Position numbers and translations under genes: made by a program | Shown here: positions 1 through 51,817 of the stretch, in pieces | How the letters are laid out: every line of letters starts with the position of its first letter | How positions within the stretch are numbered: position 1 is the stretch's first letter | Origin: Blasia pusilla | Taxonomy: Eukaryota | NCBI GenBank assembly: GCA_050084515.1 | Contig: CM114271.1 | Coordinates: forward strand, 31,248,001 to 31,312,000 | Direction: 5' to 3' | DNA: 64,000 bases | The notes under the pieces: generated by a model | Told to the model about the DNA's origin: nothing | Seen by the model: only the letters and a program-made list of their open reading frames with translations | Database searches by the model: none

Positions 1-3000
1 GGTTGCACTAAGTTTCCTCTCTTCAAAAAAAAATCTCAAAAAAATTACTCACTTATTATCCATAATCTTCATATTTTTTTAAGAGAGTTTCGGTTTTTTT
101 TCCCTTTTGTGCCTTTTTTTTAAGAGAGACTCTCCTCTCTTCCTCTCTTCTGCCAGAATATCAGGCCCCCCGACTTTTCCTTCCGTGACATCCCCTCGTC
201 TAAATTCATTTGTAGGAGCTCTTTTGTGTAGGAGTTTTAGGAATGGTAGGAATTGGGGAGCTTGTGAAGTTATTTATATGTGTGCTTTAGATCGTGAATC
301 TTGTCAATGGTAAATAAAATGTAGCTGAGTGAAGGGATATGGATTTATGAAAGGTCTGATCGATGCATAAATAATAGGTGGTCTGGATTTTGACTTTCTT
401 TTAAAGTAGGGTGGAATTGGAGGACATGTCATGAAAGAGAATGTTCTAACATTCGTATAATGGTGTATTATTGATACAATATGTGAAAGTTTTTTTTTGC
501 AGTAGATGTGTTTTATTAGGACAGCATGACAGTAACCCTCTCTGCAGAGATAACATGGTTTTGCAAAATGGAAACTTTGGTAAAATGATACAATGTTTTA
601 AGAAGTATTATGAAACTGCCCAAGTTTGGCATATAGCGGCAGTAGGCACTGGAGGAGTTTATGCCTGTAGGAGTTAAAACTTTGAAAAACATAAAGAAGG
701 TGTTGCTGCCTTATGCATATAGAGATTTTGTATGTGTGGTGCTAATATTTTCTTGGTGATCCAATTGACAGAAGACTGTTGGGGAGGTAGCAGCCATTTC
801 TTGCATATCACAAGGTGCAACAATTTACATTGCTAAAGTATAAATGGAAATTGAAAAAATAGGAGGAATGTGTGGATGTGGAAGAAGAGAGCTTGGAAGA
901 AGATAGTTAGAAAAGCAGATAGAATCTGAAAAAATGGTTAATGTAGCATTGGTATAGGGCGAGTAGCATATTTCTAGAATGTACTAAGGAGCCCTATTTA
1001 AAGATGAACTCACAAATTTGAATACATATAAGGGAGAAGAAAAAGAAAGGCACTTGAAGTATGAAGAGTTGTAGAATATTATACGTGCAAATCAGTTTCG
1101 AAGCAAGGACTCAATAATCCCTAACTGGAGCTTTAACTTTGGGTTGTGCTCAATGAGAGGGTTAACTTCGACGATGAAGTCTTTGAAATGCCTTCGTGCT
1201 TCTTTCAAATTCTCCTTAAGATCTGAAATAATTTGCATATGGATGTCATTCTCCTCGTAAAGCGCAGATAGCTCGTTGCTAAGGTTGTTTTTTGTACTCG
1301 CCAATGTCTCTATCCGGTCATGGGACCTATCCAGATGTGCCATGACTCCATGATACAATTGAAGAGGAATAGTGAGACGAAGCGAAAAATGGTCTCTTGG
1401 TGATTGCACCTCTGGTTGATATTGCTGTGGAGTATTGCAAGGAGCTGCAACCGAGTAAGGTGGACGTCTTGAAGGTTGCCTAGTTCTCATCTGGAAGTAC
1501 ATCAGCCAACAATAATGTTGGGTTAGACCATCATGGACATTTCTATAATGAATTCGTGGAAGGTAGTGAATATGAGAAGCAGAGGTAAAATTGGGATAGT
1601 ACATTTGAAAATGAGAACCCATGTTGAAGCCGTGAATATGAATTGAGACAATAGCATAACAATGGAGTATGAAAAAGTGATGGGGGATAAGAAGAATAAT
1701 TTTTGAGAGAAGAATTCAAAATGAATGGTACGCTGATATTTCATTACACATCACATAATATTTTTGGCATATATGAAAAGTTATCTCAAGTATTGACATA
1801 GATGTTAACAAAATTTATAGTTCCCAGCTACAAAACAGATTGGACCGATATATAGTAGTTGGTAGTGAGTGCAAATTTTCAAAACTCAGGTGTACAATTA
1901 TCCATGGTGCTTGGTGTAACGGAACTTGCACAATAGGTAGTTTTTATTAGTTGACATAATACTTACAGGAATGAGCAGGAATGAGAAAATGAGATAAATA
2001 TGTAATGAGAAAGTAGTAGAAATGAAACAATGGGAAAAGATTGGAAAGAAATTAATGAAGAGGGCTGAAGCTGCATTAATGGAATTCACCTTCTCTTCGC
2101 TTAGTTGATGAAGTAACAAGGTCAATATTATTGTAGACAGACAGATCAAAGTTTATAACAGTGCATGATGTCTGTGGTGGGGGTGGTGTGAGATCTGGTA
2201 AGGTGGGTACAACGTGGGGAGTGGTTAGATCTACTGGAAATGGTTCTACATCTAGGAGCTCACCTTTAGCCTTCGCTAGTTTTAGGCGAATGATCAGATG
2301 GGAAGCCTTGACAGTTGTCAAGTCTATTAGCATCTTGATCGGTACTCAAAATTCATGGCGTAACTTGCGCACCTGATCTAGTCTAATTCCACCACAAGAA
2401 AGGGCATACAATCTATCTGCTTGATTCCGTATAAGGGTGGTCCACTCTTTGAAATCAATGGCTTTAAATTCAAATGCTTCTTTCTGGAGACCTAAGACAC
2501 AACATTCAAGGTAGTAATTAGAAGGGTACATTGAGTCACAAACTGATTTGAAGTTGAGTAAATATAAAATACTAAGATAAGTGTGAGTGACAATAAAATA
2601 ATAATAGTTTGAATGTACAAAAATGAGAGGAGTTATATAACTATGGCAGTGCATTCTTGTTGCACATGCGAAATTCGTCATTCCACTCCTGACACTGAGA
2701 TATCAGAGCTTGAATCTGCATGCTTGTGACACCATACTCCCAGAATGCATGTACTAGACCAAGGTTATCTGAAAAATGCATATGGTTTTCTGTTGGTTGA
2801 ACATGACAGGCGCTTGACCTCTAGTATGTTGTTAATATCATTGTGGATCATGCTTGCAAAATCCATATATGTTGAAGGCACTTGTTGCTATGTGTTTAGT
2901 ACTAGATAGGAAATTAATAGTAATTCATTGATGCTAGCAGATGACAAAGTCTATACTTGAGTAGAAGACACATGTGTGGTGTCATTCTGAGGTGGTGATG

Positions 3001-3149
3001 AACTGGTCCTATGATCAAAGAGAGGCACGGTACTCCCTTACGCTTGTTGCATCTGACGCCATGGCTCGAGCTTGAGGCGGATTTCTTGCCCCATGATCGA
3101 GATGAGTTGTCAAATGCCATTTTGCAAGTAGTGAGTGCAACTTAATCTT

Positions 3150-3575
3150 CTATGATAATATCTAACCATATGTTAGAAAATCGTGAGAGCTAAGTACACC
3201 TAAAATCCTTAGTTGATCACGTGTTTGAACGCAGAATAACATAACATAGGCCATGCCAGGGGAAAAAGCAGATTTAATAACCATTTAACACCTACTTGGT
3301 ATTGTGGATCCTTGAGATTTATGAGCAGTCATTGCATAGCCTAATGAAAGAGGAAAGGTTTTTTTATGGTACTTTTGGTGTGAGGCATACCATGAGAATT
3401 TCAAAATTGATCCTAGTAATCGTGACAAGTTGACCTGATGTGGAAATTTTCACAACAATAGAGTGTAGAGCATGGTTTTTGTATTGGAATTCATGTATAT
3501 AACCATGTGCGCCATTAGCAGCGTGTACTTTGAGATTAATGTTAGATGTTAACATTACTTTGGAGCCTACATGCA
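3150..3575 (-). pseudogene. PIF1-family helicase C-terminal remnant (Helitron RepHel-like)
   Basis: Minus-strand translation gives VGSKVMLTSNINLKVHAANGAHG, then TFPLSLGYAMTAHKSQGSTI (motif V, ~3300-3360) and FSPGMAYVM (motif VI); broken by a frameshift and a stop. Confidence 0.8.
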
Positions 3576-4365
3576 AAGAATACATGGAAGACTTTGGAAA
3601 TATCCTTAAAGGAAAGGATACAAGGATGATAGCGCAAACATTTGGGAACTTCAAGGCTCATCATTTGAAAATTGAGAAACACCATGAAAACTTTGTTTTG
3701 AATAGAAACTTGTCCCTTGATGATATTGAGACCCTTGGAGAAGAGGAACACTTAAAGGCATTGTCAAGGAAAGTGATCGAATGTGGAATATCGATAGTAA
3801 CTAGAGTAAACTCTACAGCAGAATCATTGGAACCTCCTTTTGAAATACTTGGAGATACATCCAACCTTGATTTGGATCATTTCATGTACAAGATCAAATG
3901 TCTATATGACAGGAAGAAATTGAGCCTTTGTCCTGTACAACATAATCTTGGGTACAACCTAGGCCAACATTTACTCAGTGCAACTTCTGGTTAGAGAACC
4001 CTTCAAGTAGTTCACTTTTGCACTCACAGCAGATTGATGCCAAATCATATATCTACTCTAAGTGTGAAGTGAACTACTTGAACGGTTCTCTACGAATTGG
4101 GAAGCGAGGTAGATCTCCCAAGTCCTTGAAGAGGGATAGTGTCCAGAAGTCATTACTAAAATGGTTCAAAGCTGATGGAGATCTTGAAAATCTTGATGGG
4201 CCAGCCCCAACACTATCGTCAGGTGAGGAAGTTGGTTTTGATTTATCCTTATCCACTCTTTGTTCGGGATTGTGGAAAGAAAATATTCAACTTGTTATCA
4301 AAGGTGAAGAAAGACATTTGAATGTCAAGGGTTTGTTGCATGATGAATCTATTAGAAACACTTGG

Positions 4366-7300
4366 TATAAATGGTAAATGGTAAATAGATCAAGCCCGTG
4401 GGATCCAAAGGGTCAAAAGGCTACAAAAAACTTTACAAGTAATACATTGACTCGGAAAAAGACCCTAAAGGCCTTCCCCTAGCTAATGCCTAGAGCTTTT
4501 GAGGGATGGATAATGATATCTCTAATATAAAAACTTAAATCATAAGGCACTAGCTATAGTAAAGAATAGAAATTCTCCAAATCTATTTTATGAGCTAGTC
4601 TAATCTCTTCATATCTTGGACATGTAACAAACACATGATCTTCATCCTCAATACTTTCTCCGTCACATAACCTACAAACGCGTTCTATTCTATAAATGTT
4701 GAGCCAACCTTTTTCCTCAATTCCTAATCTATGAGACCCAATTCTATGTCGTGCGATAATATTATGTAAGAACGTGGAGATCCCCCCAAGTAGGTATCCT
4801 TATTCACAATATACAAGCATTGGATTAACATGAAGTTGATAAAACTCCATTTTTGTGTCCGAGTTGCTCCAAATGATGTTGAGAAATTGCTTTTGTAGAT
4901 GCTCGCGGAGTGCCATTGGTTTCAGGTCCCAATCTTGTTCCGCCACATTCCACTTTGAAGACCAAGTCACCACATCCGCAATCTACCCTATGGAACATGT
5001 GGCTCATAAAGCTTGATGAGGGAGACGAGAAACATCAAGAGATCTCATCCTTGCGATATAAGTGATGGTCAAGTAGAGAGCTTCAACTTCTAGAGGAACA
5101 CAATCTGATTCCACAAGAAGAATAGCATAAGAAGTTTGGTTTCTTACACCCAATTCTTCTTGTAGAAAAATCTTTTGCACCTTCTCCATGCGCTCCCTAC
5201 CTATCTTCTTACAACTAAGGCCCCAAACTTGGGTCCCAGATAAGACCAAAGGCATCAATAAGCTCCTAAATAAGAACTTCCTAAGGCCCCACGATACAAG
5301 ATGAGCTTTTCTACACCGGTCTAAAATTGAATATAGAGCTTTGTAACCAGCTTCTATTCTCTTTTGTATACAAAGTGCCCAATCATAATCATGAGAGAAA
5401 TCAATGCCTAGATATTTGTAACTCTTCACTTGTTCTAATTGTAGATCTTTGTAAAAGAATGAGAATTTGGATCTAGTGCCCACTCTAATGACTTTAGACT
5501 TCTCAAGATTAGCCTCCATCTGATTTTGGGTACAAAAACTTGCTTAAGTGTTGAGGTATTTTTGTAAACTAATGCTATCACGTGCTAGTAATATGATATC
5601 ATCTGCATACAATAACGCTTTGATGACGAAGTCTCCAAGCTTAACACCTTCACTGTCATATTCCTCCAACCACTTTTTGTTATCATCTATGAAAACTCCA
5701 AAGAGAGTAGGGGAAAAAGGGCAACCTTGAATGACTCCGATAGTACTCAAGATCTCTTAAGTTTGTGAATCTTTGATCTTGGCCCGAACGGAATGGTACA
5801 ATTTGGCCACAACAGCTAGGAAATTTTTTGGTACCCCAATGCCTTGCAACCAATCCCATAATAGCTTACGAGATAATGTATCAAAAGCTTTCTTGAAATC
5901 GATGCAACCGCAAAACAAAGCTTTCCCATTGCCCTTAGATTTCTCCCATAAAACACGTAAGGTCAAGATAGGATCGATGGTATTGTATGTTGGGCGAAAA
6001 CTAGCTTGGACTCGTGCTCTATTTTGGAAATACTTTGTCCATGCGCTCAACTTTGAATCCACCAATTTTCCCAAAAGCTTGGCAAAAACACTACCCACCA
6101 TGATAGTGCGATAGTTTATCACCAAGTCCTTCCTTCCTGATTTGTGAATAGGAATAATCTCTTGTAACGACCAAGTAGAAGGAAACCCATAAATAACAAC
6201 ATCACCCAATACTTTGGTGAGGATCGACCCGATAGAATCTCCTCCCCACTTAAAAAGTTCAAAAGAAAGACCATCCAAATCGTGCGATTGGCTAATGAAT
6301 CTTCTTAGTTGAGTCATCACCTCTGCTTTAGAAAATAAGCCTGGTATGCCTTCACAACAGGGCATAGATGTAGCATCGCGGAAGAAATAGAGCTTTGTGG
6401 CAAAAGATATCAAAGACTTAGGATTAAGAGTAGGTTTTGAAGACCATACTACCAACCATCTCCAAAATGATTTGGGTTCGTCATGCAGCTCCCTTGTTAA
6501 GGACTCTTGCTTTCGCCGCAAGAAAACTTGTTTCTTAGATTTCACAAAGTGTTTGTAAAGGCTTGTCATAATAAGCCGACTTTGGATATCCAAAGATTTG
6601 TCCACTGATCTTACCCTTGCTTGCTTGCATTCAGAGTCAAACCACTGATTACAAGGCAGCCTCCTAGCACTTCTATCCCTGTGCCAAAAAAAGAACTTGG
6701 ATGCACTATTCTTGAGCAATTCGGTTAGTTGCAAACTTGCCGTGTGTGGATCAGGGCTCCATACAATGTGAGTCAAGAGTCCTTGTAAATCTAGGATGTA
6801 AAGATCTTTTTTAACCAAGATCTAAGAAATACTTAGGAGAAGCTTAAACGGATTAACATATTTAGAGAAGAATTATCTTCGACAATTAGAGAGTAAACAA
6901 AAGAGGTGCATGATTTGATTTAGGCTAAGGCTCTAAAACTTCAAATGTAGAGACATGAGAGCTATTAGTGGGCGAGGAGAGAAGATAGTTAATGGTACTT
7001 ACAACCAGTAGAGGAGAAATATGTATTGGAGTGAGAGTTGGAAAAATTAGACGTTCCATTAAGAACTTTCAAATTACAAGTGGCTTGGAAAGACAAAAAA
7101 TTCTCTTTCAAAGGATTTGTAGAAAGATCTGAAGAGATTCTAGACCGCCAACCATCCTCAGGTTCTTCGAGAAGAGGAGAAGTCAAGGACTCATTGAATT
7201 GGGTAAATTGAGCACTATGCGTGCAAGCATTGAAATCCCCAACTAGAAAGATTTCACCTTTGCTTTGATATTTGAGAACATCCCCAATAAGTTGATGGAA

Positions 7301-14249: not shown

Positions 14250-15431
14250 GGAGATTGGTCAAGGCATCCTACGGAGACAATACGCACTTGGGGAGGCTCC
14301 AATCGATTATCATTTGGCGCCTTCTTGGCTATCTAGGGAATGCACAACCGGTTAATCAAGTCTTGGGACTCAATCTAAGTCTTCCGCTTGCAAAGCTCAA
14401 GGTTGAGAGTGCTTCCGGGTGAAGCTAGGTGAAATATAGGACGGACTCTACGATGTGTAGATATAAAGAGACCTTATCATTTTTGGACTTTGGTTTGGAC
14501 TTCCATTTTTCATGGAGATAAGATACATTTTCAAGTCTGGTATTAAATAATATAAATTCTAAAATGCTAAAATAATAATGCCCTACTGATTGCTAAATCT
14601 TTTCACACTCGAGCTTAACTACGTGAATGAGAATTTGGAAATTAAATAAATAGAGTTTCAAACAAAATTTTGAGACTAGTAAAATAAGATAAAAATATTA
14701 ATTATTCATAATAATAAAATTATCCATATCAACTTAACAACTTATGTCTCCTTAAGATATGGGGGAAAATAAATTTAATAAATATTTATTCCTTAAGTAT
14801 AAATAAATAAAAGGACTACATATATTTATTAAATAAATAAATTTAAATATGAAATGATAACCTTATACCTTACTCAAAACATATCTTTGATTTCATTTCC
14901 TTGAATTTGACTGATTTGGGCGTCGGCTGATTTTTTATATTATTGGATTTGGATTGAAAAAATTCCATTAAAGATAGTTTTCTATCTTTTCTTATTCAAG
15001 AAGATGATTTTGAGATAAAAAATCAATCAAAACTATGTAACCTTCCTACATTTTTCACCATATAGGACCATCTAAGAAAAAATTGAATTGCAAAATTCTT
15101 AACCATGGTGAAAATGATAGAAAAAATCACATTCAAAATAATAAGAAATCAGGTAATACTTCAAAAGCCTTCATCACAAAAGTTAGAGGGTGCTAATTTT
15201 AATTAAATTTCCACACAAAATCTAATAGTGCCAACTTTCATATTAATTTGATATCAAATTAATCATTTTGGATATTAATTTTTTATATCAATCAACTTTC
15301 AATGCAAATTTTAAGCACACAATTTTCTATGAAAAAATATTTAAAAAGTTAATGTGTGAGACCCATATTATATTCTAATTGATATCAAAATGACATAGCT
15401 CTAAGGTTTGTAATGTTCAAGGATAGAACCT

Positions 15432-15950
15432 TGTCATGTCTTTTAGGATAGATCGGTGAGATCTAGTAGAGCGTTTTTGTGAGTAGTGGAGGACAGGCTC
15501 AGTAGTTAGAGGATGACCTGCCAAGGCCCCGTGAAATTTGCGAGAGCAGGTTTCCCCTTCGTTTCGGCTCATTTGGAGCCTTATCGAGGAACTTACTATT
15601 TTAAGTAAGTACCATTTTGAGTATATGATCGACTTTCTATTTTTGTTAAGTGGCCCTTGACCTCCTACATGAGGTCAAGAGCCAAGGAGGTGACTTGGGA
15701 GCATAGGTTACCATGGAGAGAGAGCTTAGAAGAGGAAACGGTATACCTCAAGGAGAGAGAGCTTGAGAGCTAATTCTCTCTTTGTTGAACCTCTTGGTAT
15801 GAGGCGGCGGAGCTTTGGTCTTGCTTGTCTTATATGTGTAACCCAAGCCTCTCATTAGGAGAGTGGGTTTGGTTTCACATTGAGAGAGACATGTGAGAGT
15901 GCACACATGTGAGAACTATGGTGTTGTGAGAGAGATTGGATCTTATTTTA
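15432..15950 (+). repeat. Split direct repeat A1
   Basis: Colinear with 25041-25560 (roughly 90% by eye). Similarity stops abruptly after GGATCTTATTTTA. Confidence 0.93.
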
Positions 15951-17656
15951 CAAATAGAGAATGAGTGAGTGAGAGAGCTTCAAGGGGAGCTCATTGGTCA
16001 CTCGTTGGTTTGGCAGGTTGGGGATTGTATTCCCCCTTTAGCAGTTCATGGGAGTGCTCACTGGAGCAAGAGCCACTTACATGTGATGTTCCCTTTGCCG
16101 ATTTTTCGTGTGGAAGAGTGGCGTGCGGAAGCGCTGCCCAATTTTTTATAGGGATTGAGTATGGGAGCGGGTTGCCTCATGCCAGTGATCTTGGGAGCAC
16201 CATGTAGCTTGCTGATTTGTGATCTTACATGTTTTACATTTTCGTTGGGAGAAATCAGCGCGGAAGCGCAGCCAAATTTTGTGTAGGAGAAAGAGACATT
16301 GGGCTTTACAATAGTCCCCGTCAATTTTTACGAGAATGTCTGATTCCAAATATTTTTTGATGTTGTTCTAGATCGTGAAGCTGTATATGTTGTGCAACAA
16401 ATGGTGCGCAATTTGGAATTGCAAGCAAAAAGTTATGGTCAATCTTGCAAAACTAAACTGCCATTGCTAGGCAAGTTTCAGGGTTAAATTATTCAAACCC
16501 TGAACGAGTCGCCGCGCCGGCGGCGGCCATCGCCGTCATAGTCACCGTCAACGGTCGACTATCACCATCAATGGTCAACCGTCAAAGGTCCACTGTTGGC
16601 CGCCGCTGCCGCCTAGCGTTGCTCAGAGCCGCGTTCGTCTGTTGTCCACCCTTTGGTTGCCATTGCCGCCATTACGGAGTGGAGGGTCTTCCATGACCAC
16701 CGTTGATTCTCTGACTTACGCCGCCACCACGTACTTTGGTTTGGCCGCCACCGTCATCATAGTTTTGTCATCAACCAGTGATGGCAGGTGACCATGGGTT
16801 ATGGTGTTTGAGTTTTCATTTGATGTTGCTATGTTGGGATTGGTAGCCGCTCGACGATGATAAAGTACCGTGTCGTGACGCCCGTAGCCGCAATGCGTTG
16901 CCAATTGCCGCGTTGTGCCGCATGTGGCTACACCGCACCATCTTGATCGTGGAGCCGCTCCTTCACTAAGGTGCAGAGCATGTGAATTGCTGATTGAGGA
17001 GGGTATGTCGCTGAGTGCCGTGCCGTTTGTAGCCGTTCCATGCCGTCAGTGCCGCACGAGACCGCTGGACCTGCACCGCACATCGAGGAGGTTTGAGCAA
17101 CATCAGTATGAGAGGAGTAAGACTTGCTGATTGGAGGAGTTGTCTTCATGACTTAGTTGGGGACAAGATTTGCAGTTGCCGAGGAGCGATATCGACATTA
17201 TTGTCAGGTTACCCATTCTGGTCTCTTACCCTACACGTGTGAGGGATTTCCGGATATTGGGAAGTTACTTGGGATATTGGGTTCGTGCTGATGCTAGTAG
17301 CATCGATGATGTATGGGTTTAGGGGACATAGATGTGTGTGGGTTGTCCACAGTTGAGGATGGTTTGTCGATGAGACAATAGATGGGTTGATTTGCCACAC
17401 CATGCTGCTTGTTGCCGCACAACATACGTCTCAGTGAGAAAGTGTAGATTGAGTGCCGCATGTTTAGTTTGAGTGATTGAGGGATTACTCACGAGATTGA
17501 GAGTGATCATGTGAGAGGGGCACGAGGGCCATCACGGCGTCCTTTCGGGATTTTGAGAGGCGACGTAGTGGACCTAAGAGTAGCTCTAGAGGGTTTACCC
17601 GGAGTGGTGCGAGGTTTTGAGGGTCTCCACGTGAGAGACCACCTTGATCTCCTTCT

Positions 17657-18800
17657 GTGTCGTCTTTAGACAAGGGGGAGTATATAGAGGAGTCTGTTAG
17701 TGATCCACCATACACATTGAATGGTCCTACTAGTTGGGCGTACGAGATGGACGACCAGGGTAGAGGACCGCGTAGGTTTTCGGGTGCTGTAGGCACTATA
17801 GAGCTACAGGACTTCATTGCAGAGTTTAGGAGTTGGTGTGACTCACTACGGGCTAGGAACTCTAGAGAGTTCAACCCGTTTACAACATAGAACCGTATGT
17901 TCTAGCATTTAGAGGGGGCGCCCATGGACGATTACCATGAGTTCTCCCACAGATATGCCCAAGAGATTGAGGCATGGCGACTCTACTATGACCCACACTA
18001 TGTGTCATGGACGGAGCCATTGATAGATAAGGAGGAGGAGTCAGGAGAGACTACTTCCTCTTCCACTAGTGATGTTTTAGGAGGGGTCACTCGCATTGGA
18101 GTAGTTGCACCATCTAGTCGGGTTCGTCCCAGGTTCAACCTCGTGGTTGAGTTCTTTGTTGGGTTGAGGGCAAGCTACCAGGGGGTACGGATGGAGAAGT
18201 TGCGGAGCATCCACGACTTCCAAAGGCACCCGGGTAAGAGTTTGCGTAAGGCTTACACTTCCTTGCGCCGGTTGATCAATGTCACTCAGGGATGACGGAA
18301 GCTCAGGCTATCTAGTCATGGTATGCGATGTTGGACCGGACCCTGCGGACATGGGTGCGGGAGGGGTGCTTCTTATGAACACCTCCCTACTTTGAGAGAT
18401 GTTTTTAGGACCGCCAAGAACATTGAGCGCAACATGGCTGAGGAGAGCGTATCCACCATGGGTTCTAGGCGAGAGCATTCACAATTATCTATACCACATG
18501 TGCAACAACGTGGACTCCGAGATAGGTCGATTGTGGCACCACAAGCTCAAGGAGGATACCCAAGACCACATAGACCTGTACCTTCATATGCGGCTTAGCA
18601 GCAACCGCCTACTATTACTTGTTGCTCATGTGGTGGAGCCCATCATCAAAGCGATTGCATTCGTCAGGGTCATGGACGTGTTCCTCAACATGGAGAAGGA
18701 GATGGTGCTGCACCATAAGGTTATCAGTGTGACTATTGTCAGAGGTATGGTGATACAGCGCCAGGTGTTTCAGTTTACATCCTGAGTTATGTCTAGATCG
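17657..18800 (+). pseudogene. gag-like region with zinc knuckles
   Basis: Broken ORFs (IELQDFIAEFRSWCD..., LRSIHDFQRHPGKSLRKAY), followed by CSCGGAHHQSDC (~18620-18660) and a degenerate CDYCQRYG knuckle. Confidence 0.7.
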
Positions 18801-19679
18801 AGGGCTAGAGAAGGCACCAGAGTGAGTAGCCGGTCCAGGTGGGGCTAGAGGTTGTGCACCAAGTGGTCTCGTTGGGGGACGAGGAGCTAGAGTTTCCCGA
18901 CAGGGTGGTGGAGCTGCCCATGGAGGAGGTAGAGTCTCACCACTTAGACGCGTCAAGGGAGACGCCGGGCATGAGGCTGGGATGGCTGCTCTAATAGAGC
19001 AGCTACAGGAGCAGATTGCCGCTATGGCATTGAGGTTACCCGATGCCGGATCTGTGGCATCGACATCATATGGAGTAGCCAGAGACATGGAGGATCCTGG
19101 TTGGATGAGTGGGATTGCCCAAATGGAGGCCTCTGTAGTTGTGATGCGTGGAGCAGCCGCAGAGTGGGATCCACAACGAGGGAAAGCCAGGAAACAGACT
19201 AGGCTTCCTCAATCTTTCACATTTTCTGAGGCAATGAGGAACCCATCGATGGGTCCTAATCAGAGTTCTTGGAGAGTTGGTGATGTTATTGGTGTGCAGG
19301 CATGGAGGATGATGGGAGAAGCAAGTGCGACGACTCCTATTGCTGATGCTAAGGAGGGGCATGTGTCGAGCACGTTGTTGGGGGCGGCCACCGTTGTGTA
19401 TCGTGCTCCTTTACTTTCTGTTTCTGATGTTATGACGTTGGGAGTTACGCCCGCCAAGATTTTTTTGCTGGCCGCTACGCTATGTGAGCGTGGAGTTGAA
19501 ATTCTTGCATCACGTTCAGAGGTGATTACAGAGGAGGTGATTGACCTGCCCTTGGAGCGGATGCTTGGGCCGTCCACGTCAGATTCATGGCAGGCTGCGG
19601 CTGCTAGGATGGCGGAGATGCCCGCTAGACTCGTGATAGAGCATGCCAAAGTTTCTCCTGGTGTTGTATTGTTGGATAA

Positions 19680-20010
19680 CGAGGGAGAGTTCTTTGAGTT
19701 GGTGAGTCCTGGAGGTAGAGCTTTTAGTCCACAGCACGTCTTGTTGGATTCAAGAGCGCAACCCTTGATGTTGGGAAAAGTGTCATTCAGAGGATTGGGC
19801 TTGACGAGAGCTGATGTGGAGCGATGTCTATTCCAGATATAGACATCCTTGGGTGGAGGGAGCGTTTATCACCCGACAAGAGGTCGAGGTGAGGATTCGC
19901 CCCAGACATCCTACAGACAAGTCCGTGGTGCGAGCCAAGGCGATAGTGACTGATGTAGAGTCCTACGACGTCTTGGTTGGTGGAGCAGTGTTATACCTAA
20001 TGGGGTTTTT
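19680..20010 (+). pseudogene. Retroviral-type aspartic protease domain
   Basis: VLLDSRAQPLM (DSGA motif with a G-to-R change) at ~19740-19770, and C-terminal YDVLVG after a frameshift. Confidence 0.75.
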
Positions 20011-20449
20011 CCCTGGATTAATGGGAGAACTTAGCGTCCTACAGAACAGGATGGTAGTCAAGAGAGGGGCGCCTTAGCTCATTACCCATTCGATTCACAG
20101 GTGCAATGATCAAGCAACGACTAGGAGAGATGGCGAACTTAGCAGCATTTAGTAGTGCCATCATTTGGCCTAGTGATTTGATTGAGGGACATGTCCATAT
20201 AGAGGATACTCCCGTTCTTGACATTTCTATGGAGAGGAGTGTCATGGTAGCCCCATCAGTTCGTGGAGGAGAGGTGCCCCTCTGGGGCTTGACTGAGGAG
20301 CTTCGACGCTTAGCCATTGAGCATGTGCAGACCGCGTGGAGCAAGGCATTTGCACTAGAGTGTGATGGATCACAGGAACCCCATGTAGGCAACAGTGCTG
20401 CTATGACCCCTTTGGACACCACCCTGATTGTATGGTGCATCCCAGAGAA

Positions 20450-21416
20450 GGGTATTTGGATGTTGGATCTCTTTGGAGGGATCAACATTGGGTTAGCTTT
20501 TATTTTGCACGCTGGAGTGCGCGTGCAACAGTACCTGTATGTGGAGATTGATGATGTTACAAGGTGCGCTTCACTTCATCATGTGGCGCTGTGAAGCCTC
20601 CATTTTCCCGACTTCTTGTCTGCGTCCGACATTCAGTATTACCATAGTTCCCTACTGAGGGGCATTTCATTGTTGGGGGCGCAGGACTTGGAGCGGGTAG
20701 GGACCATAGACTTGGTCATTGCTGGTTGGCCGTGTCAGGGCCAATCGAGTGCTGGACGAGGTAGCGGGTTAGTTGACACTCGGTTCACGTTGTTTTGGGA
20801 GATGATGCGGATCTTGCAACATTTACAGGAGCATCAGCCTCGTTCTCCAACATATATTTTGGAGAATGTGCCAATTTTGGGCAATTCAAGGTCCCGCGTG
20901 GTGACAAGTGCACATTAGGTGCGCGCATGGATCGGCGTGGAATTATTGTTAGATGCGGTGAGTGTGGGTTCATGAACACATCGCTTGCATCTTTGATGGA
21001 CCAACTTGGTACCACACGAGGTGTTACGGAGGGCATTTGCGAGAGTGGAGCGCCCCTCTGATTTGTTGGTGGATTCTATATTGGATCCAGGCCGTTGATC
21101 ACAGGCAATGAGGCTAGATGATCGACCGTCGTTGACTATGGTCAACATGATTGGTAGGCCACATGCCGCCTTTCCCACATTGGTGAGTTTTCCCGCTTCC
21201 TATGCATTCAAGGAGGCCGAACCTGGCTTGGTTTGGGATGACCAAGTATAGAGGTTGGTGGAGCCCAACGCCGATGAGCGAGAGAGAGCGATGGGATTCC
21301 CCACAGGAGTGACGGCAGTACCATCACTATCAGAGGCATCACGACGTCATGTCATGGGTCAGGCGATGGACCTGAACTGCTTGACATGGATTTTCAGCTT
21401 AGGAGTAGCTGAGTAG
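20450..21416 (+). pseudogene. DNMT3-like C5 cytosine methyltransferase domain within pol
   Basis: One frame, no frameshift. Motif I LDLFGGI (20463); II YVEID; IV IAGWPCQ (Cys at 20733); VI ILENV (20862); VIII DAVSVGS*THRLHL*WTNL; IX-X ERERAMGFPTGVT...RRHVMGQAMDL. Same frame as the start of RT (21708). Confidence 0.93.
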
Positions 21417-21707
21417 CATCATTTGTTGATGCGATAGATCACAATTGTTGCGTTGGTGAGCCCCATGCCTACCGAGACGGTTGAGGCAGCGGCTGGGGGC
21501 GAGACCCGAGGAGATCGACACACCAGGGGTGATCGGGAGAGACACCCTTGGACTTCTTGGGATGTTTTGCACGTACGCCAAGAGATGATAGCCACATCAT
21601 GGAGTGTGGTTCCAAGTACTGCACATGGAGATGAGAGTTCTATTGTCTGAGACGGGATTGCACCATAGCAACCACCGACACTCGCGCCGGAGAGTCCTAT
21701 CGTAGTC

Positions 21708-23110
21708 ATGATGGAGACTTGGGAGCCAAATATGGGCCCTAAGTTGACAAGAAGAGAGCGGCGTCATATACACCAATTCCTTAGGAGTTATAGGAGTTGT
21801 TTTGCATTTAGTATGCATGATTTGGGTACGCTAAAGGGTCTAGGGATCCCCATTGAGTTTTCGAGTGGCACGCCGATCTTCCGACAACCCTACAAGTACA
21901 GTGACATGGAGAGGGCTCTGATTCAAAGTAGGAACCAAGACTAGCAGAGATGTTGCATGGAGAGTATGCATCTCCCATTTTCATGCCCGCCAAGAAGGAC
22001 ATGCATGGCAACTGGATGGATAGGCGAATGTGTGGAGATTACCGACCTATCAATCGGCAGATGAAGTCTGATAGGTATGCCATGCCCACCCCTAAGGAGA
22101 TCTTTGATACAATTGGGCATGCAAAGGTCTTCAGTTCATTGGATTTGCGAGGTGGATATCATCAACTGCCTATCAAATTGGAGGACAGGCAGAAGACGGC
22201 ATTTTGGGGCATCGATCCTCACGGGAAGGATTGTTTGTACCAGTGGCGGTTCTTACCATTTGGGTTAAAGAACCCCTTGGCTAAGTTTCAAAGGGTCATG
22301 GATAAGATCTTGGCAGGTCTAGATTTTGCTAAGCGTTATATTGATGACATCGTAGTCTTTAGCGCCACGTTTGAGGAGCATGAGCGACATCTAGAGGAGG
22401 TGTTTCGATGATTGCAGTTACATGGGCTGAAGCTACATCTAGGCAAGTGCAAGTTCTTCTACGATCAGATTGAGTACTTGGGTCATACGATATATCGTGG
22501 AGGCCTTGGTATGCAACAGAAAAAGGTAGAGGCTATTTCACGTATTCCACGCCCTATAGATGTGAGTCGAGTTCGTGCATTCATGGGATTGGCGAACTTC
22601 TATCGAAGGTACGTCAAGGATTTCAGTTCGGTTGCGAAACCGCTAACCTTGATGACCAAGTTGGATCAGGAGTGGCACTAGGGGCATGAGAAATAGAGAG
22701 CATTTTAGATGCTCAAGGACAGATTGATGTCCGCGCCCATATTGAGGAGACCGATCAAGGGGCTTTGAGCCGTGCTCACCCAGCATGACGATGATGGTAG
22801 AGAGTTCGTGGTGGCTTATGCTAGTCACTTGAACAACGCTGGAGAGGCAAAGTATAGCTCGTATGAGGGTGAGTGCTTGGCTACAATGTGGGTTGTCGCA
22901 CATTTCAGATATTATCTATTCGGCACTTCCTTTACCATCGTTACTGATCATCAGCCACTTAAGTGGTTGATGGAGTCCGACACGCTTACATGGAAGCTTG
23001 CAAGGTGGGCTCTTTTATTGCAGGAGTATGACTTCCAGGTGGTACATAGACCTGGGATGCTCAACCAAGATGCAGATGGTTTGAGCCATAACCCATGCCC
23101 GAGTCAGCGA
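21708..23110 (+). pseudogene. Reverse transcriptase and RNase H (Ty3/Gypsy type)
   Basis: RMCGDYRPIN, SSLDLRGGYHQ, FLPFGLKN, YIDDIVVFS; RNase H VVAYAS...YSSYEGECLA...TIVTDHQPLKWL...ADGLS. Confidence 0.95.
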
Positions 23111-23459
23111 GATGCGATTGGAGCTCGTTGGCATGGTGAGAGTGATGAGGAGAAGGTGCCAGGATGGCACGCATCAGCCTATTTGGGCTTGTTGGCTATG
23201 GAGAGCCAGATTATTGAGACTTCGATGGTGAGGTCTGATGGACAGTCCTTAGACCCAGAGGCCGGTGAGGAGACGACAGGTGGCCGAGACATTCATGACA
23301 ATGGAGTGGTCTTGGAGTACCTGCGTATCGGCAGCGTCGCGAGCACATTGGGTGCTAGAGAGCGGGATCGGATCCTACAACGCACCAGACGGTTCCGGTG
23401 GGAGGGCACACATGTGTTGCGAGTGTGGGAGGATGGTAGAGTGCGTGTAGTGCCTCATC

Positions 23460-24540
23460 CTTCGCAGAGAGCACGTTTGGTGTGTCATGCCCACGAGGAG
23501 TTGGGTCATTCTAGAGTAAAGCGGACATACATCTTGCTCTAGATTCAGTATTGGTGGCGAGGCATACAGACTAACGTTCAGCAGTTTGTTGCCAGATGCA
23601 TGGTGTGTGATCGAGTCCAAGCATCGTTCAATGCTCCAACTCCACAGTTGCATCCACTTCCAATGATGGGTTTAGGTTATAGATGGAGTTTGGATTTTGC
23701 AGGACCTTTGCCTTTCACAGAGCGCCATAGTCGTTATGTGTTGGTGATGGTCGAGCAGTTCTCCAAGTGGATAGAGTTGGTTGCATTTCCTGACAAAGCA
23801 AGTGAGGGAGTAGCGTATGCCTTCCTAGATGGAGTGTTGAGTCATTATGATGCACCAGCTGAGGTGTTGACAGACCAGGTTACAGAGTTCTGTGGGGAGT
23901 TTCAATCCTTGTGTGATCAGGCACTAATCGACCACCACACTAGTTTGCAAGATCATCCTAAGGCGGACGGACTAGCGGAGGGAGTTGTGCAGACGGTGAA
24001 GAGAGGACTACGCAAGTATGGATTGCAGAGAGGTCACCTAGGAGATTGGGACCTTCAGTTTTCGTGGTTGGCGATGGGATACAGATTCAGCAGGTAGGCA
24101 TCCTTAGCGTCTTTCTCACCGTACTTGTTGCTTTATGGCCGAGAGCCAGATTTACCTGTGGCCATTTGTCGAGATGTTGGTGAGGTGTTGAACCTTGATG
24201 ACCCTGATGTATGGATGCGAGCATGTTCTCAGAGGGCTGAGTTGTTTCGGAGAGTGATGGCCATGGCATTTGAGAACTTGGCGAGTGGGCAACATCGGGA
24301 TAAGTTGAAGTATGCGACTATTCGCAGAGGTGGTTATCGACCTACTATCCGGAGGTTTCATCAAGGAGACTATGTCTACTTGCAGCAGACGGCACCCACG
24401 ACATTGGATGTGACTGCAGGGCGCACCATCTTGAGAGTGCGTGAGGTTTTGCCATCCAATGTTCTCTAATTGGAGAGACGCGATGGTATGATTTGGAAGG
24501 ACCATGTGCTTAATTGTGCGCCATGTCATCTTCCGAACAT
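23460..24540 (+). pseudogene. DDE integrase
   Basis: HHCC finger (AHEELGH...CMVC); core RWSLDFAGP...VLTDQVTEF...ADGLAEGVVQTVK. Confidence 0.93.
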
Positions 24541-24589
24541 TGATGGTATAGTTGATCCGAGCTTAGCAATAGTTCCTACAGGCTTGTAG

Positions 24590-24730
24590 TGTATGTTGTG
24601 TGGTTCCGCCCGTGGTGCAGCCATTATGCTAGTCTGTGATGAATGTCCGAGAGGATAGCATATGGCATGTTTGACACCACCTCTCACTAGGGTTCCTGAG
24701 GGACGATGGATGTGTCCCAGATGTGCATAG
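24590..24730 (+). pseudogene. PHD finger at the integrase C-terminus
   Basis: CMLCGSARGAAIMLVCDECPRG*HMACLTPPLTRVPEGRWMCPRCA* fits the canonical C4HC3 pattern; a homologous finger is in the second copy at ~58460-58603. Confidence 0.9.
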
Positions 24731-24911
24731 AGTAGGTAGTTCTACATTCCGACTTGTGTCTGTGACATGGATGATAAGAAGGCGACCAACGATGGGGCCA
24801 CATGAGCACCCGGCCTTCTTGCTCTTAGCGTCCGAGAGATGTATGTCATGGTAGGTAGGGATAGATAGCTATCTGGAGTTAGAGGGACCTAACCACCAAC
24901 TAGCGAGGCAA

Positions 24912-25038
24912 TTGGAGATATTTTGGTACTTCTTGTCTCGTTGTTTGGATGCCATGAGTTAGCATGGGATCGTGCGTGTTTGTGTGTGTGTTCGGTGACA
25001 GCGATATATGTTGTGTAGCGATGTGTATGCGCACTACA
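24912..25038 (+). repeat. Split direct repeat B1
   Basis: 127 bp colinear with the terminal 25561-25687; ends in ...GCACTACA, 2 nt (GT) before A2. Confidence 0.93.
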
Positions 25039-25040
25039 GT

Positions 25041-25560
25041 TGTCACGTCTTTTAGAATAGATCGGTGAGATCTAGTAGAGCGCCTTCATGAGTAGTGGAG
25101 GACGAGCTTAGTAGGTCAAGGACGACCTGTTGAGGCCCCGGGAAACCTGATAGAGCAGGTTTTCCCTTCGTTTCGGCTCATTTGGAGCCTTATCGAGGAA
25201 CTTACTATTTTAGGTAAGTACCATTTTGAGTATATGATTAACTTTATATTTTTGGTAAGTGACCCTTGACCTCCTACATTAGGTCAAGAGCCACGGAGAT
25301 GACTTGGGAACATAGGTTACCATGGAGAGAGAGCTTGGAAGAGGGGAGGGATATACCTCAAAGAGAGAGAGCTCGAGAGCTCATTCTCTATTTGTTGAAC
25401 CTCTTGGCATTAGGCGGCGGAGCTAAGGTCTTGCTTGCCTTGTGTGTGTAACCCAAGCCTCTCATTAGGAGAGTGGGTTTGGTTTGACATTGAGATAGAT
25501 ATGTGAGAGTGCACACATGTGAGAACTATGGTGTTGTGAGAGAGATTGGATCTTATTTTA
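25041..25560 (+). repeat. Split direct repeat A2
   Basis: Starts TGTCACGTCTTTTAG; copy of 15432-15950. Confidence 0.93.
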
Positions 25561-25687
25561 TTGGAGATGTTTTGGTACTTCTTGTCTTGTTGTTTGGATG
25601 CCATGAGTTAGCATGGGATCGTGCTTGTTTGTGTGTGTGTTGGATGACAACGATATATATTGTGTAGCGATGTGTATGCGCATGACA
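25561..25687 (+). repeat. Split direct repeat B2 (right terminus)
   Basis: Copy of 24912-25038, ending in CATGACA and followed by the TSD ACCT. Confidence 0.93.
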
Positions 25688-27285
25688 ACCTTTTTCCTTT
25701 CCCTCTGGACTTGATATTGAATCCAGATTTCTTCCTTAAAGATCAATCAAAAGTTTCACAATCTTCTAACTTTAGGCTAATATCATAATAAGATGGAATG
25801 ATAGGTTTAAGAGGACCCATTGCCCCTTTGTCCACTGCTGTATATTCCCTAGTATAAACTCTTTGAATAAAAGTAGCTTCTATTCGATTCAATGATTACA
25901 AAGTAATTTCTAAAATAGTGTCATGTATAGTTGACTATCCTTCTAATCTACTTGCCCTAGTCGTGTTCTCCTCCATCCAATCATGTGCTTTGTCTTGAGT
26001 ATATTGCTCCTCTTTGGTCAAATTCATAAGATGATCATCTTCATATACTTCCTTCCCCCATGTACTTCACCTACTCCCTTGAACGCTGGTTATGTGTGTC
26101 GTGGAAGCTTGTGTTCAACAGATCACGCTCTCCTTACTAATCAACACCAAAACATACTCACATTAGCCAAGGTTTGGGTGAACCAACCTTGTGTCTCTCA
26201 AGTCTTGGTGTGCATCCATCCTTCAAGTTCAACCAATCTATGGGGTTAGAACCGTTACATACCAACCTAATCCTTTCTTCCCAACACAATAAAGTTCTTC
26301 AAGACTTGGGACAAACTTCATTGATAAATTAGGAACCTGAAATGATGCTAGCGTGCCTAGCATCTTCACAACCCAATGGATGTCAAATGATTCTCTAACC
26401 ATGACTCAATATTTGAGTAACGCGTCAAGGTCTAAGGGTGGTTTCCATAACTGCTTCATCTAGACTTGGCATAGTGTCAAAATCCTTATGCCAAGCTCTC
26501 AATGTGTTTCGTGCCCTCAGTTCATCCCTATGCTTCCCAAGGTGGGGATCATGTTCCAAACACCCTTGGAGACCCTCTCCCTTATATATTGTTCTAGAGA
26601 TTCTCATTCCCTACCTAGCTATATCTAGGGAATATCTTGGGTTGTTCCTTTTGGCCCTCAACCCAACTATCATTTCAATAATTTGGGGATGGTTTTTAGA
26701 TCTCTCTTATAGAATTTCTTTGGAGTTTTAGTATATTGGAATTGGCTTCTCACAAGCTTTCAAACGCCACATTATTCATACCAAACACATCTTTGGATCT
26801 TGCCGTTATGACATCAAACATGAAGAACCCTAAATGGTCAATCAAGTTACAAGTTAGGTTGAAGTCCCCCTTGGTGCCCAACTCTTGTAGGACTTGAGCT
26901 CTTCCCAAGTCGTGTTTGGCCTTTGGTCTTGCTTTGCTAGGTCAAAATCCCTATTATCTAAGATGCCCATCAAGGCTCGTGTCTTGCATTCGCAACTCAT
27001 GTCTCACTTGTGAGATTCTGACACACTTCCAGATATCCTAGTGTAAGCCCACTAGGGTTCTAATATTCTGCATTGGCTCTCATTTAGTTATGAGGGTTGG
27101 GATTCCCAATCTATCCCTATCATTACTATCATGTTGAGACAGCTATGCCTCTCGATTCTTGATTTGAACTTCCAAATAATCACATCAAAATCTTTGGATG
27201 GAGGAGGCTCATCATCTTCAAAATCACTATTTATCCTCCTTCCTTCATTTTCAATCCACGTATCAGTCAAGGTCTTCAATTGCAA

Positions 27286-30769: not shown

Positions 30770-31838
30770 ACAAAGGCAGGCTCGGGTGCGGGCCGGTCTA
30801 GGCGGCGGGCTCAAACCTTTGCCGTCAACCGCCTAGACCGGGGCTAACAGAGCCCGCACCCATTGCGTGGCTGCAGAGCGGGCTCAAGGTGGACAGGCGC
30901 GGGCTCAGGGCGAGCACGCGTGGGCTCTGGTGTGATTGGGCGCGGGCTTGAGGCGGGCAGGTGTGGGCTCGAGGTAGGCAAGCGCAGGCTTGGGATGGGC
31001 AAGTGCGGGCTCCGAGCGCGCAAGCGCGGGCTCCACGCAGGTAGGTGCGGGCTCTTGGCGGGCAGGTGCGGGCTCAAGGGTGATTGGGCGCGGGCTAGGG
31101 CGGGCAGACGCGGACTCTCCACGGGCAGGCGTGGGCTAGGACGGGCAAGTGCGGGCTCTAGGTGGGCAAGCACGAGCTGAGAGCTGATTGGGCGCGGGTA
31201 GGTGCAAGCTCTGGGCATGTAGGTGCGGGCTCAAGGCGGGCAGGCACAGGCTCGAGGTGGGCAGGTGCGGGCTCCGGGAGAGCATGTGCGGGCGTGGGGT
31301 GGGCAAGTGCTGGCTAGGGTGAGCAAGTGTGGGCTCAAGGTTGATTGGGCGCGAGCAAGCGCGGGCTCCGGACGGGCAGGCGTGGGCTAGGGCGGACAAG
31401 TGCGGGCTCATTGTTGATAGGGCGTGGGCAGGCACGGGCTTCGGGCGGGCAGGTGCGGGCTCAAGGCAGGCAAGCGCGGGGTAGGGCGGACAGGTGCGGG
31501 CTCAAGGCGGATAGGCACGGGCTCAAAGCTGATTGGGCGCGGGCTAGGGCGGGCAGGTGCGGGCTCAAAGCGGGCAGAACATGGGCTCAGGGCTCGCAAA
31601 AATTTGTTCCGCAAGACCAAAAATGGCCGTTGGACCAAATACTTGTCCGCCGGATCAAAGTTTGCGGGCCATGAGCCCGCCCAGGTCGGGCTATGGGCCA
31701 CGCAATGGGTACGGGTTGCGGGCGGGCTTGGGTGCGGGCTTAGATGCGGGCTGGGGTGTGAGCCCCGGGTACTCGGGCCCACACGGTCATGTCTTTCCAT
31801 AAGACAGACATAAGTCTGCAAACGCAGATGCAACCTTG
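30770..31838. mobile_element. GC-rich tandem-repeat arm of the hAT-type MITE family
   Basis: Dozens of degenerate ~20-21 bp units like GCGGGCTCAAGGCGGGCAGGT, ending at the family TIR ATGCAACCTTG (31838). Confidence 0.7.
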
Positions 31839-35086: not shown

Positions 35087-36079
35087 AATGTTTCCAACTC
35101 TCCTATAAGATGAAATAGTAAGATGCCCGCTCTATGCGCCGGAAATAAAAATGTATTTGAGGAGTCCTTTGTTTGCTTGTAAAAGGAAGGGACTGGAGTG
35201 AAAGGACTAATTATACAAAAATTAAAAAAAGATTTGTGTTGCTCGTAACATCTGAAATATTTTCTTGCTGCCCAGTTGCCACGCGTGAAATAGAGAGGTG
35301 TTTGAAAATCAAGAAAGCACTCTCCAATAATAATGTAGAGTAATGAGCCCTAAAATGTATTGTGTGAATGCTCTGAATTCAAAAAATTTAACTTCTGTGG
35401 AATTATTTAGCCGATATTATCCAATGTATCATTAAGGAAATTTGGATCAGATTTCCATTGCAATTCAGATTTCATTTAAAGTATCCAACTAATTAAGGTA
35501 TCAAATTAAGTATATGTTTTCTAGAAACCTAACTCAAAAAAATTCTTGGAGCTCTAACTTATTACATTGTATGTGTGAAGACTCTCATAACCAAACGGGT
35601 ACCAACGAGGAACATCAAAATTCGAGTAGGTTGACACTAGAATGGAAATACCGTGGAGTTTCATAAGCAACATATGAGTAGTAGAAATGAGATGCAGCCT
35701 TAATGGCTATCTTAAATGATAAATTTTGTGATTTAGAAGAGTATGATTAAACATTGGAAGAGCTCACTTCTCACAAGAGTTGGACTCCAAGAAGTCTACA
35801 ACATAGGTTGAAACTTGATTAAGTGTTTGGGGATTATCCACATTTGAGGTGATAATAGCTAGATCTAAGATGTATTTGAGATTTTTTAGGTGGCTTTGCA
35901 TTAGAAAGCTTATGAGAAGCCGGTTCCAACATACCAATTTTCCAAATGATAGTTTGAATTGAAGGCCACATAAAGCTGTCGAAGAGAAATTTTTGGATTA
36001 AGGAATGGGATAAAGTTCTCTAGAACTATATATAAGGGGTAGGGTCTTTAAGGGAATTTGGACCGTAAACCTGAGTACC

Positions 36080-36430
36080 AACAAAGAGGAAATAAAGTAA
36101 AAATATCCCTTTCTTTGGGTATACCCCTTTCCTTCTCCCAAGCTCTCTCCATGATAACATGTGCTTGCCGTTTATCTCCTTAGTTTTTGACCTACAGTTG
36201 GGGGTCAAGGGCCACTTTCCAAAGTGGAAAGTCAACATACTCCTAATAATTTGAAATTTACCCGAAATATTAAGTTTCTATATATAGCTCCAAATGAGCC
36301 GGAATAGAGCGCAAACTTGCTCTCTTAGATTACTCGAGGCCCCATTAGGTCATCCTCGACCTCCTGAGGCCGTCCTTCAATCTCTGAAGGCACCCTACGG
36401 ATACTTGTCAATCCATCCTAAAAGATATAA
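36080..36430 (-). repeat. Diverged partial copy of repeat A
   Basis: Reverse complement of the 5' part of A (e.g. GCTCCAAATGAGCCG, GGTCAAGGGCCACTT, ATCCTAAAAGA). Confidence 0.75.

Positions 36431-51711: not shown

Positions 51712-51817
<106 letters not shown>

Follow-up and report, generated by a model that had tools for sequence, protein, structure and literature searches.

An old, dead copy of a Gypsy-DNMT3 retrotransposon with family-typical split direct repeats in Blasia pusilla

We analyzed a 64,000-nucleotide stretch of the Blasia pusilla genome (GenBank assembly GCA_050084515.1, contig CM114271.1, positions 31,248,001 to 31,312,000 of the forward strand), referred to below as the window, in which positions 15432-25687 are occupied by a retroelement. 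Taking identity and repeat layout together, we are nearly certain that this locus holds an old, inactive member of a high-copy retrotransposon family of streptophytes, Gypsy-DNMT3, with the split layout typical of that family. The gene order of the family is gag, protease, DNMT3-like methyltransferase, reverse transcriptase (RT), RNase H, DDE integrase and PHD finger. Repeat units were delimited by a direct-repeat search together with BLAST, and their identities were obtained by global alignment; coding parts were mapped by Pfam scans, tblastn with related proteins and translation. The features of the element are listed in order along the window.

15428..15431, plus strand: left target-site duplication (TSD), ACCT, identical to the four bases at 25688-25691
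15432..15949, plus strand: A1, the left terminal repeat, 90.3% identical to A2; its start, TGTCATG, is an integrase end
15741-15746, plus strand: TATA-like box within A1
15770-15785, plus strand: r1, the self-primer site within A1, matching the complement of 15950-15965 with 2 mismatches
15950..15965, plus strand: candidate self-priming primer-binding site (PBS), directly after A1
15966..17761, plus strand: long untranslated leader, with open reading frames (ORFs) that have no Pfam match; homology to Marchantia gag begins at 17762
17762..19700, plus strand: gag, decayed, located by tblastn of the Marchantia protein P0007
19700..20008, plus strand: aspartic protease remnant; the motif near 19740-19790 is LLDSRAQPLMLGK, against LLDSGAQPLMLGK in relatives
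20004..21935, plus strand: DNMT3-like C5 cytosine methyltransferase domain in the polyprotein frame (PF00145, E 8e-13)
21941..24724, plus strand: RT, RNase H, integrase (H2C2 and rve/DDE) and PHD finger, with in-frame stops and one frame shift near 21935-21944
24873..24910, plus strand: conserved pre-B motif CTGGAGTTAGAGGGACCTAACCACCAA followed by a decayed polypurine tract (PPT; 24900-24910)
24911..25038, plus strand: B1, the internal copy of the right-end repeat, ending in ...ACA and 93.0% identical to B2
25039..25040, plus strand: two-base spacer (NN), here GT, inside the palindromic junction CACTACA-GT-TGTCACG
25041..25559, plus strand: A2, the internal copy of the left-end repeat, with r1 at 25380-25395
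25560..25687, plus strand: B2, the right terminal repeat, ending in CATGACA, an integrase end
25688..25691, plus strand: right TSD, ACCT

Instead of two full long terminal repeats (LTRs), the element has A alone at its left end, with unique interior sequence directly 3' of A1 and no B in between, and B-NN-A-B at its right end, an arrangement shared with the relatives described below. It thus carries the split direct repeats of the DIRS order. The termini form a 7-bp inverted repeat (TGTCATG...CATGACA), and the TG...CA ends together with the 4-bp TSD indicate insertion by a DDE integrase. An earlier sequence-only reading of the locus had proposed the same anatomy, an A1 without B, a B1-GT-A2-B2 right end, TG...CA ends and a 4-bp TSD, and we confirm it within one base: its boundaries lay 1 nt off because a single A (15950/25560/24911) is common to the start of B and the start of the interior. 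Its observation that no TGG-type PBS follows A1 also holds in the window sequence. Global alignment gave 468/518 identical aligned bases between A1 and A2 (Kimura two-parameter distance, K2P, 0.104) and 119/128 between B1 and B2 (K2P 0.074), and these similar distances indicate that both repeat pairs are of similar age.

The coding content is that of a Ty3/Gypsy element. Pfam matches on the plus strand follow the order RVT_1, RT_RNaseH, Integrase_H2C2 and rve (rve E 1.6e-11), and residues 9-689 of the Marchantia protein P0007, in which CCHC zinc knuckles are present, align to 17762-19923 at 38% identity (tblastn). An intact relative from a metagenome, L044, carries two ORFs, ORF1 (gag-protease-DNMT) and ORF2 (RT-RNase H-integrase-PHD), and the RT-to-PHD part of the window element is 60.7% identical to ORF2 over 941 residues (tblastn). 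The Asp_protease_2 match in L044 (E 2e-4, 22.4 bits) lies under the curated Pfam cut-off of 24.3, the solved structure nearest to its ORF2 (RT-RNase H) is Ty3 Gag-Pol 7q5b (E 4e-98), and its C-terminal module is a PHD finger, not a chromodomain. No match to a tyrosine recombinase (PF00589) was found by Pfam in 30 distinct ORFs or read-throughs on both strands of the element, nor in L044 or the more distant relative L063. The protease-RT-RNase H-integrase order, the Ty3-like RT, the H2C2 and DDE integrase, the TG...CA ends and the short TSD all place the element in Ty3/Gypsy. This bears out the earlier view of a Gypsy element with a protease and a DDE integrase but no tyrosine recombinase.

The C5 methyltransferase domain, which the earlier reading had not seen, identifies the family. 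Translation of 20004-21935 contains the methyltransferase motifs LDLFGG, GWPCQG and ENV, in the same frame as the start of RT, and the nearest solved structures are DNMT3A (E 3e-8), followed by DNMT3C/3B and the plant DRM2. The 11 in-frame stops over 20058-21944 (629 codons) show that the window copy is dead. Among proteins, the DNMT region comes closest to hypothetical ones from Marchantia polymorpha (45-51% identity) and Sphagnum fallax (38%), which share the gag-protease-DNMT(-RT) order. Its identity to longer metagenome polyproteins, ordered RT-RNase H-DNMT-integrase-PHD, is 31-41%.

In Klebsormidium nitens, a Gypsy element whose Pol polyprotein contains a DNMT3 domain has been reported under the name KnitGypsy-Dnmt3 (de Mendoza et al., 2018; PMC5890265). 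The text of that paper presents the acquisition of the DNMT as an event of the K. nitens lineage, and the legend of its Figure 4c calls the repeats DIRS-like and the domains Gypsy, the DIRS layout being A-coding region-B-A-B. The name "streptophytes (Gypsy-DNMT3)" also appears in a 2026 preprint (bioRxiv 10.64898/2026.05.21.726589). Since it carries an in-frame DNMT3-like domain, the window element is a land-plant relative of KnitGypsy-Dnmt3, and thus a land-plant member of a kind already reported in a charophyte. Both have a Gypsy polyprotein with an unrearranged DNMT3-type domain, A-coding-B-A-B repeats and a streptophyte host. They differ in that the nearest proteins of the window element are from a liverwort and a moss; its DNMT lies between protease and RT, whereas in the algal-type relatives P0020 and L063 it lies between RNase H and integrase. 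The K. nitens element enters this comparison by its published description, not by its sequence. The layout, which the earlier reading had thought possibly undescribed, is therefore in print, though only as a remark. A literature search that covered the text of PMC5890265 found no TSD, PBS, PPT or other primer site and no mechanism given for KnitGypsy-Dnmt3; in the present family, such sites are located. A second search on split direct repeats, Gypsy and integrase returned no DDE-Gypsy element with split repeats, as judged by titles and the beginnings of abstracts, and searches on Gypsy-DNMT elements in Marchantia and on LTR-LTR junctions in self-priming elements added nothing. New here are a G-rich PPT adjoining B1 in relatives of the window element and a 16-nt candidate self-priming site of Tf1 type adjoining A1.

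The split layout recurs in related copies. A contig scan with alignment of DNMT-bearing polyproteins yielded 72 related loci in short-read metagenome assemblies, most of them 53-65% identical to the Marchantia protein over its whole length. Self-comparison revealed the split layout in L021, L024 and L029, as well as in L001, which is truncated by the locus end, and in L040, which has the 3' end only. The complete split copies have TG(or TA)TCATG...ACA ends and TSDs of their own (window ACCT, L021 TCTC, L024 AATC, L029 CATA). For a census, we mapped the parts of L029 onto all 72 loci, among which the distant algal-type L061, L062, L064-L067 and L070 lie on contigs whose length is insufficient to reveal repeats. 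In 19/19 loci with the 5' end (16 distinct sites by flank), the interior follows A immediately, none having B in between, and B continues into NN-A(-B) at 6/18 plus-oriented 3' ends (L001, L021, L024, L029, L040 and L052, the last with a junction deletion). The junction with its two-base spacer is found in L001, L021, L024, L029, L040, L044, L047 and L063; in L044, L047 and the GC-rich, distant L063 it reads CACGACA-NN-TGTCAYG downstream of a G-tract, and in L063, too, no B precedes A1. The presence of the split layout with separate TSDs in independent relatives shows that it is typical of the family and not a one-off rearrangement. The earlier reading had asked whether the split layout with a 4-bp TSD is the rule, and had named full A+B repeats at both ends of most copies as the mark of a one-off event; the related metagenome copies answer in favor of the former, with no B at any of the 5' ends.

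The dinucleotide NN is variable among six copies (GT, GC, AT, AT, TC and AT) and shows no relation to the TSD of the same copy among these six, which have subfamily structure. It may be re-made in each cycle or taken from the flank of the parent, six copies being too few to tell. Large internal deletions in two independent copies, L017/L050 and L039, stop on their right side exactly at the first base of B, which fits the start of B being an end defined by reverse transcription. A rearranged copy found in two contigs (L032 6343-6890 and L037 8602-9149) has an inverted 3'-end piece, made of part of the interior and B on the minus strand, adjoining the 5' interior in place of A.

The abundance and transcription of the family were assessed from sequencing reads. 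About 1 in 100 of a DNA run with the same species label (X18) was sampled and mapped at 80% likeness, which gave a depth of 1,195-4,101 over the element versus 9.7 and 3.4 in the flanking bins; of the 196,005 mapped reads, 186 were at least 99% alike and 142,644 less than 90% alike. The family is large and old, of the order of hundreds of diverged copies. Over 15000-26100, the DNA run differs from the window copy by 1,208 C>T and 1,230 G>A changes versus 460 A>G and 428 T>C, an excess as expected from the deamination of methylated cytosines, and the observed-to-expected CpG ratio of the element is 0.68. Reads of an RNA run (X19) are spread over the entire element, including A and B, with one orientation 10-20 times stronger than the other; assuming the usual stranded libraries, the stronger orientation would be that of sense transcripts. 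Only 7/7,603 RNA reads are at least 99% alike to the window copy, so that the RNA comes from other copies of the family and not from this one, and none of the listed records that contain the window stretch is RNA. Thirteen RNA molecules begin at 25566, 6 nt inside B2, where the neighboring depth is 34; these starts may be clipping at variant A/B joints. Among the 15 of 517 read joints listed, those shown all lead from the end of A to the start of B (67+193+67 = 327 reads). Joints of the canonical kind, from B end to interior start and from interior end to A start, are not among these 15, which counts for little as evidence. Loose ends were listed for the 24 best-supported places, a further 12,538 lying below them; at position 25038, 1,534 reads pass from the end of B into unrelated, heterogeneous sequence.

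The boundaries of the repeats are of two kinds. The outer ones (A start, B end) coincide with the integrase ends and the TSD, and the inner ones (A end, B start) with primer sites. On the A side, the 16 nt at 15950-15965 are complementary 16/16 to 25380-25395 in A2 (0/100 shuffles giving 3 matches), and the pairing between the PBS and r1 closes the minimum-energy fold of 15765-15975. The TATA-like box lies 21-29 nt upstream of the self-primer site in the window and in metagenome relatives alike. This arrangement matches that of Tf1-type self-priming, for which the site is a candidate. In 12/17 related copies, the ~20 nt that follow A can pair, at a conserved position, with a site that precedes the end of A by 150-164 nt, through a sequence unrelated to that of the window; since the pairing is kept while the sequence differs, the PBS pairing covaries. 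Self-primers are known in the Tf1/Sushi group and have been predicted for the moss Tcn1 clade (Neumann et al., 2019; PMC6317226).

On the B side, a G-rich tract, CTAGGGGGGCG, ends exactly at the start of B1 in 15/18 related copies, in which the sequence before B1 reads ...GGACCTAACCACCARCTAGGGGGGCG; the remaining 3/18 have internal deletions ending exactly at the start of B. The tract directly before B1 is AGCTAGGGGGGGCA in L044, and the 11 bases at 24900-24910 of the window, CTAGCGAGGCA, are a decayed version of CTAGGGGGGCG. The earlier statement that no PPT precedes B1 is therefore not supported, as relatives have one there and the tract has decayed in the window copy. With the PBS at the end of A and the G-tract ending at the start of B1, the A2/B2 joint brings together the base that precedes the PBS and the one that follows the PPT. 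Precise joints of this kind are present in the window, L024, L029 and L040; in L021, 19 nt are inserted at the joint.

These sites suggest a replication route in which transcription would start in A, ~164 nt before its end and downstream of the TATA-like box. The 5' end of the RNA would pair with the site directly after A1 and prime the minus strand, as in Tf1 self-priming, and the G-rich PPT directly before B1 would prime the plus strand. Ordinary two-jump reverse transcription would then yield a linear B-NN-A-PBS-interior-PPT-B-NN-A molecule, in which the LTR is B-NN-A, a reading that we consider likely. The termini of this linear cDNA would not be TG...CA; the ends used by the integrase, TGTCATG... 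and ...CACGACA, would lie inside the LTR as a CA-NN-TG palindrome. If the palindrome is cut after each CA, the products would be two CA-3' ends, recessed by 5' overhangs of 2 nt, as is usual for the processed form. The integrated form would then correspond to two B-NN-A LTRs placed end to end, which forms the A2/B2 joint, and opened at the palindrome that adjoins the 5' side of the interior. It resembles a permuted, 2-LTR-circle-like molecule, in which a blunt end joint would give the A2/B2 joint. Three routes may lead to this same product: joining followed by cutting, cutting and integration followed by joining through host repair, or an end-to-end template jump of the RT. We propose this circle or end-joining step only tentatively. 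The split form alone could go through a further cycle, since a transcript of it would have R at either end as well as a full B-NN-A block. We judge this account, mechanism included, to be probably the best explanation of the locus. The earlier reading had suggested a non-canonical, possibly tRNA-independent route in which the internal B1-A2 block templates both ends. Independence from tRNA is now probable, because a candidate self-priming site adjoins A1, and B1-NN-A2 is a likely template for the outer A1 and B2.

Several observations weigh against this account. The anatomy, the TSDs, the layout across the family, the PBS complementarity at a conserved position and the place of the PPT in relatives are observed, whereas every later step, from the start of transcription and the use of primers to the circle or end joining, is inferred. 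The window's own tract before B1 is not purine-pure, and the self-primer pairing is not the best match in 5/17 relatives. A circle, or a symmetric choice between palindromes, predicts a permuted A-B-NN-A-interior-B form, which occurs at 0/18 loci (16 distinct sites) whose sequence extends 470 nt or more upstream of A, and the model leaves this asymmetry unexplained; short-read assemblies such as these may collapse a 345-bp repeat. In 12/18 related 3' ends, B runs straight into unrelated flank, giving a short A-interior-B form, with 4-bp TSDs in L007 (TGTT), L028 (TGTG), L033 (ATTA) and L043 (TACA) and a duplication matching at 3/4 positions in L017. These short forms may be B1/B2 deletions or collapsed assemblies, but could also be the primary product. 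Among the read joints listed, moreover, molecules bridging B1-GT-A2, A1/interior and interior/B1 cannot be counted.

Replication in the manner of DIRS, PAT and Ngaro elements but with a DDE integrase is an alternative that we regard as unlikely. Here the internal B1-NN-A2 would act as a splint or template for rebuilding both ends, starting from an RNA without the outer parts of A1 and B2 and passing through a single-stranded or partly double-stranded cDNA with no canonical strong-stop jumps, and the integrase would trim at the first CA on each side. The layout is indeed that of PAT, Ngaro and SymbioDIRS, as described in PMC4157794 and PMC5890265; the internal block is the only complete B-to-A information in a transcript starting in A1; and a linear pathway with fixed ends explains the missing permuted form better than a circle does. 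Nevertheless, the inner boundaries coincide exactly with a classical PPT and PBS, which two-jump reverse transcription predicts and a splint does not need, and the RT is Ty3-like, not DIRS-like.

We find it improbable that A-interior-B is the main integration product, made by an integrase acting on a linear B-NN-A...B-NN-A cDNA at the palindrome closest to the interior on each side, with the split form as a rarer by-product and yet the sole form able to replicate. The short-form 3' ends and their TSDs agree with this, as do the reads that leave the end of B at 25038. However, at one insertion site the short form of L028 and the split form of L040 (also L034) share their 3' flank, a single B in one and B-NN-A-B in the other, which is either a deletion polymorphism or an assembly collapse, so that at least one short form arose by later B1/B2 deletion or is assembly-made. 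A 115-bp repeat can collapse in short-read metagenome assemblies like these, and reads running from B2 into the flanks of other copies may have been placed on B1.

The element could also be read as a canonical Gypsy with an A+B LTR, in which a one-off rearrangement, tandem insertion or assembly error removed B from the 5' LTR and added one before the 3' LTR. This would account for the unit elsewhere in the window in which A and B are contiguous between TG...CA ends (minus strand, 54746 to 51560) and for the common A-end/B-start joints in genomic reads (three joints among those listed). However, a solo A-B also arises when A1 and A2 of a split element recombine, the inner boundaries are where the PBS and PPT are found, and the layout has been published for K. 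nitens (legend in PMC5890265). The related copies refute this reading and leave it hardly any credence: L021, L024 and L029 repeat the layout with a TSD of their own, L001, L040 and L052 repeat it in part, L044, L047 and L063 have the B-NN-A junction, and the direct A-to-interior joint is present at all 19 related 5' ends.

Several known systems share traits with the family. With PAT, TOC, Ngaro and SymbioDIRS elements the family shares the split direct repeats A1-interior-B1-A2-B2, but in place of a tyrosine recombinase it has a DDE integrase, TG...CA ends, a 4-bp TSD and a Ty3-like RT and RNase H. As in Tf1/Sushi (Tcn1) elements, the candidate PBS lies directly after the repeat and is complementary to a site near the presumed 5' end of the RNA, not to a tRNA. 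Unlike this family, with its split repeats, DNMT and PHD finger, those elements have two full LTRs and a chromodomain, and the likeness concerns the primer arrangement, not the placement in a clade. Retroviral 2-LTR circles (prototype foamy virus, PFV, and HIV-1) offer a third parallel, since their junction is a CA-spacer-TG palindrome of two integrase ends. Retroviral integrases can cut such palindromic LTR-LTR junctions, and cutting after each CA gives two 3'-processed ends, as proposed here (PMC1180852 and PMC1905944). The retroviral junction is an extrachromosomal by-product; here it is a fixed internal part of the integrated element, with a 2-nt spacer.

The window holds further repeats. 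A second, more distant copy of the family lies at 51384-51553 and 54749-58709 (plus strand, 70-75% identical) and lacks the equivalent of 20585-21947, so that the beginning of RT and the greater part of the DNMT domain are missing. No recognizable terminal repeats surround it, and neither the pre-B motif nor a junction palindrome is found near its 3' end; it is uninformative on the layout. The contiguous A-B unit mentioned above (51560-54746, minus strand) is ~80% identical to the A and B of the element. It is inserted in this second copy at the equivalent of 19680, with TTAG and TTGG as flanks, and is either a "solo" unit left by A1/A2 recombination or an integrated A-B fragment. Within the A part of this unit sits the second copy of a mobile element, seen as a 2.5-kb inverted repeat with 87% identity (4369-6885, plus strand; 52175-54692, minus strand). 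An isolated A-like fragment at 36079-36425 (minus strand) is 71-74% identical to the A of the element and of the solo unit. Elsewhere, 47898-48468 is an interstitial array of degenerate plant-type telomere repeats (CCCTAAA, with 14/21-bp variants), and blocks of GC-rich tandem repeats, with periods of ~21 bp and ~67-84 bp, occupy 30875-31590 and 46316-46963.

Split direct repeats have been treated as a hallmark of tyrosine-recombinase retrotransposons. The same layout in a Gypsy lineage with a DDE integrase indicates that it depends on the way the cDNA is made and opened and not on the inserting enzyme. With the primer sites located here, what was a single line in a 2018 figure legend becomes a replication model that can be tested. 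It is possible, though we put it no higher than that, that a whole Ty3/Gypsy lineage, from green algae to bryophytes, has uncoupled the ends made by its RT from the ends used by its integrase, with a tandem-LTR or circular intermediate as an obligatory step. If so, the 2-LTR circle, a dead-end by-product in retroviruses, would be an obligatory step in this lineage, which would form a mechanistic bridge between LTR and DIRS-like elements in a self-priming family with its own DNMT3 and PHD reader. In Blasia pusilla, a land plant, this DNMT3- and PHD-bearing family amounts to hundreds of diverged copies, and it is transcribed there. Since the element published earlier was described as particular to a single charophyte lineage, the land-plant family widens the question of what role a transposon-borne methyltransferase plays.

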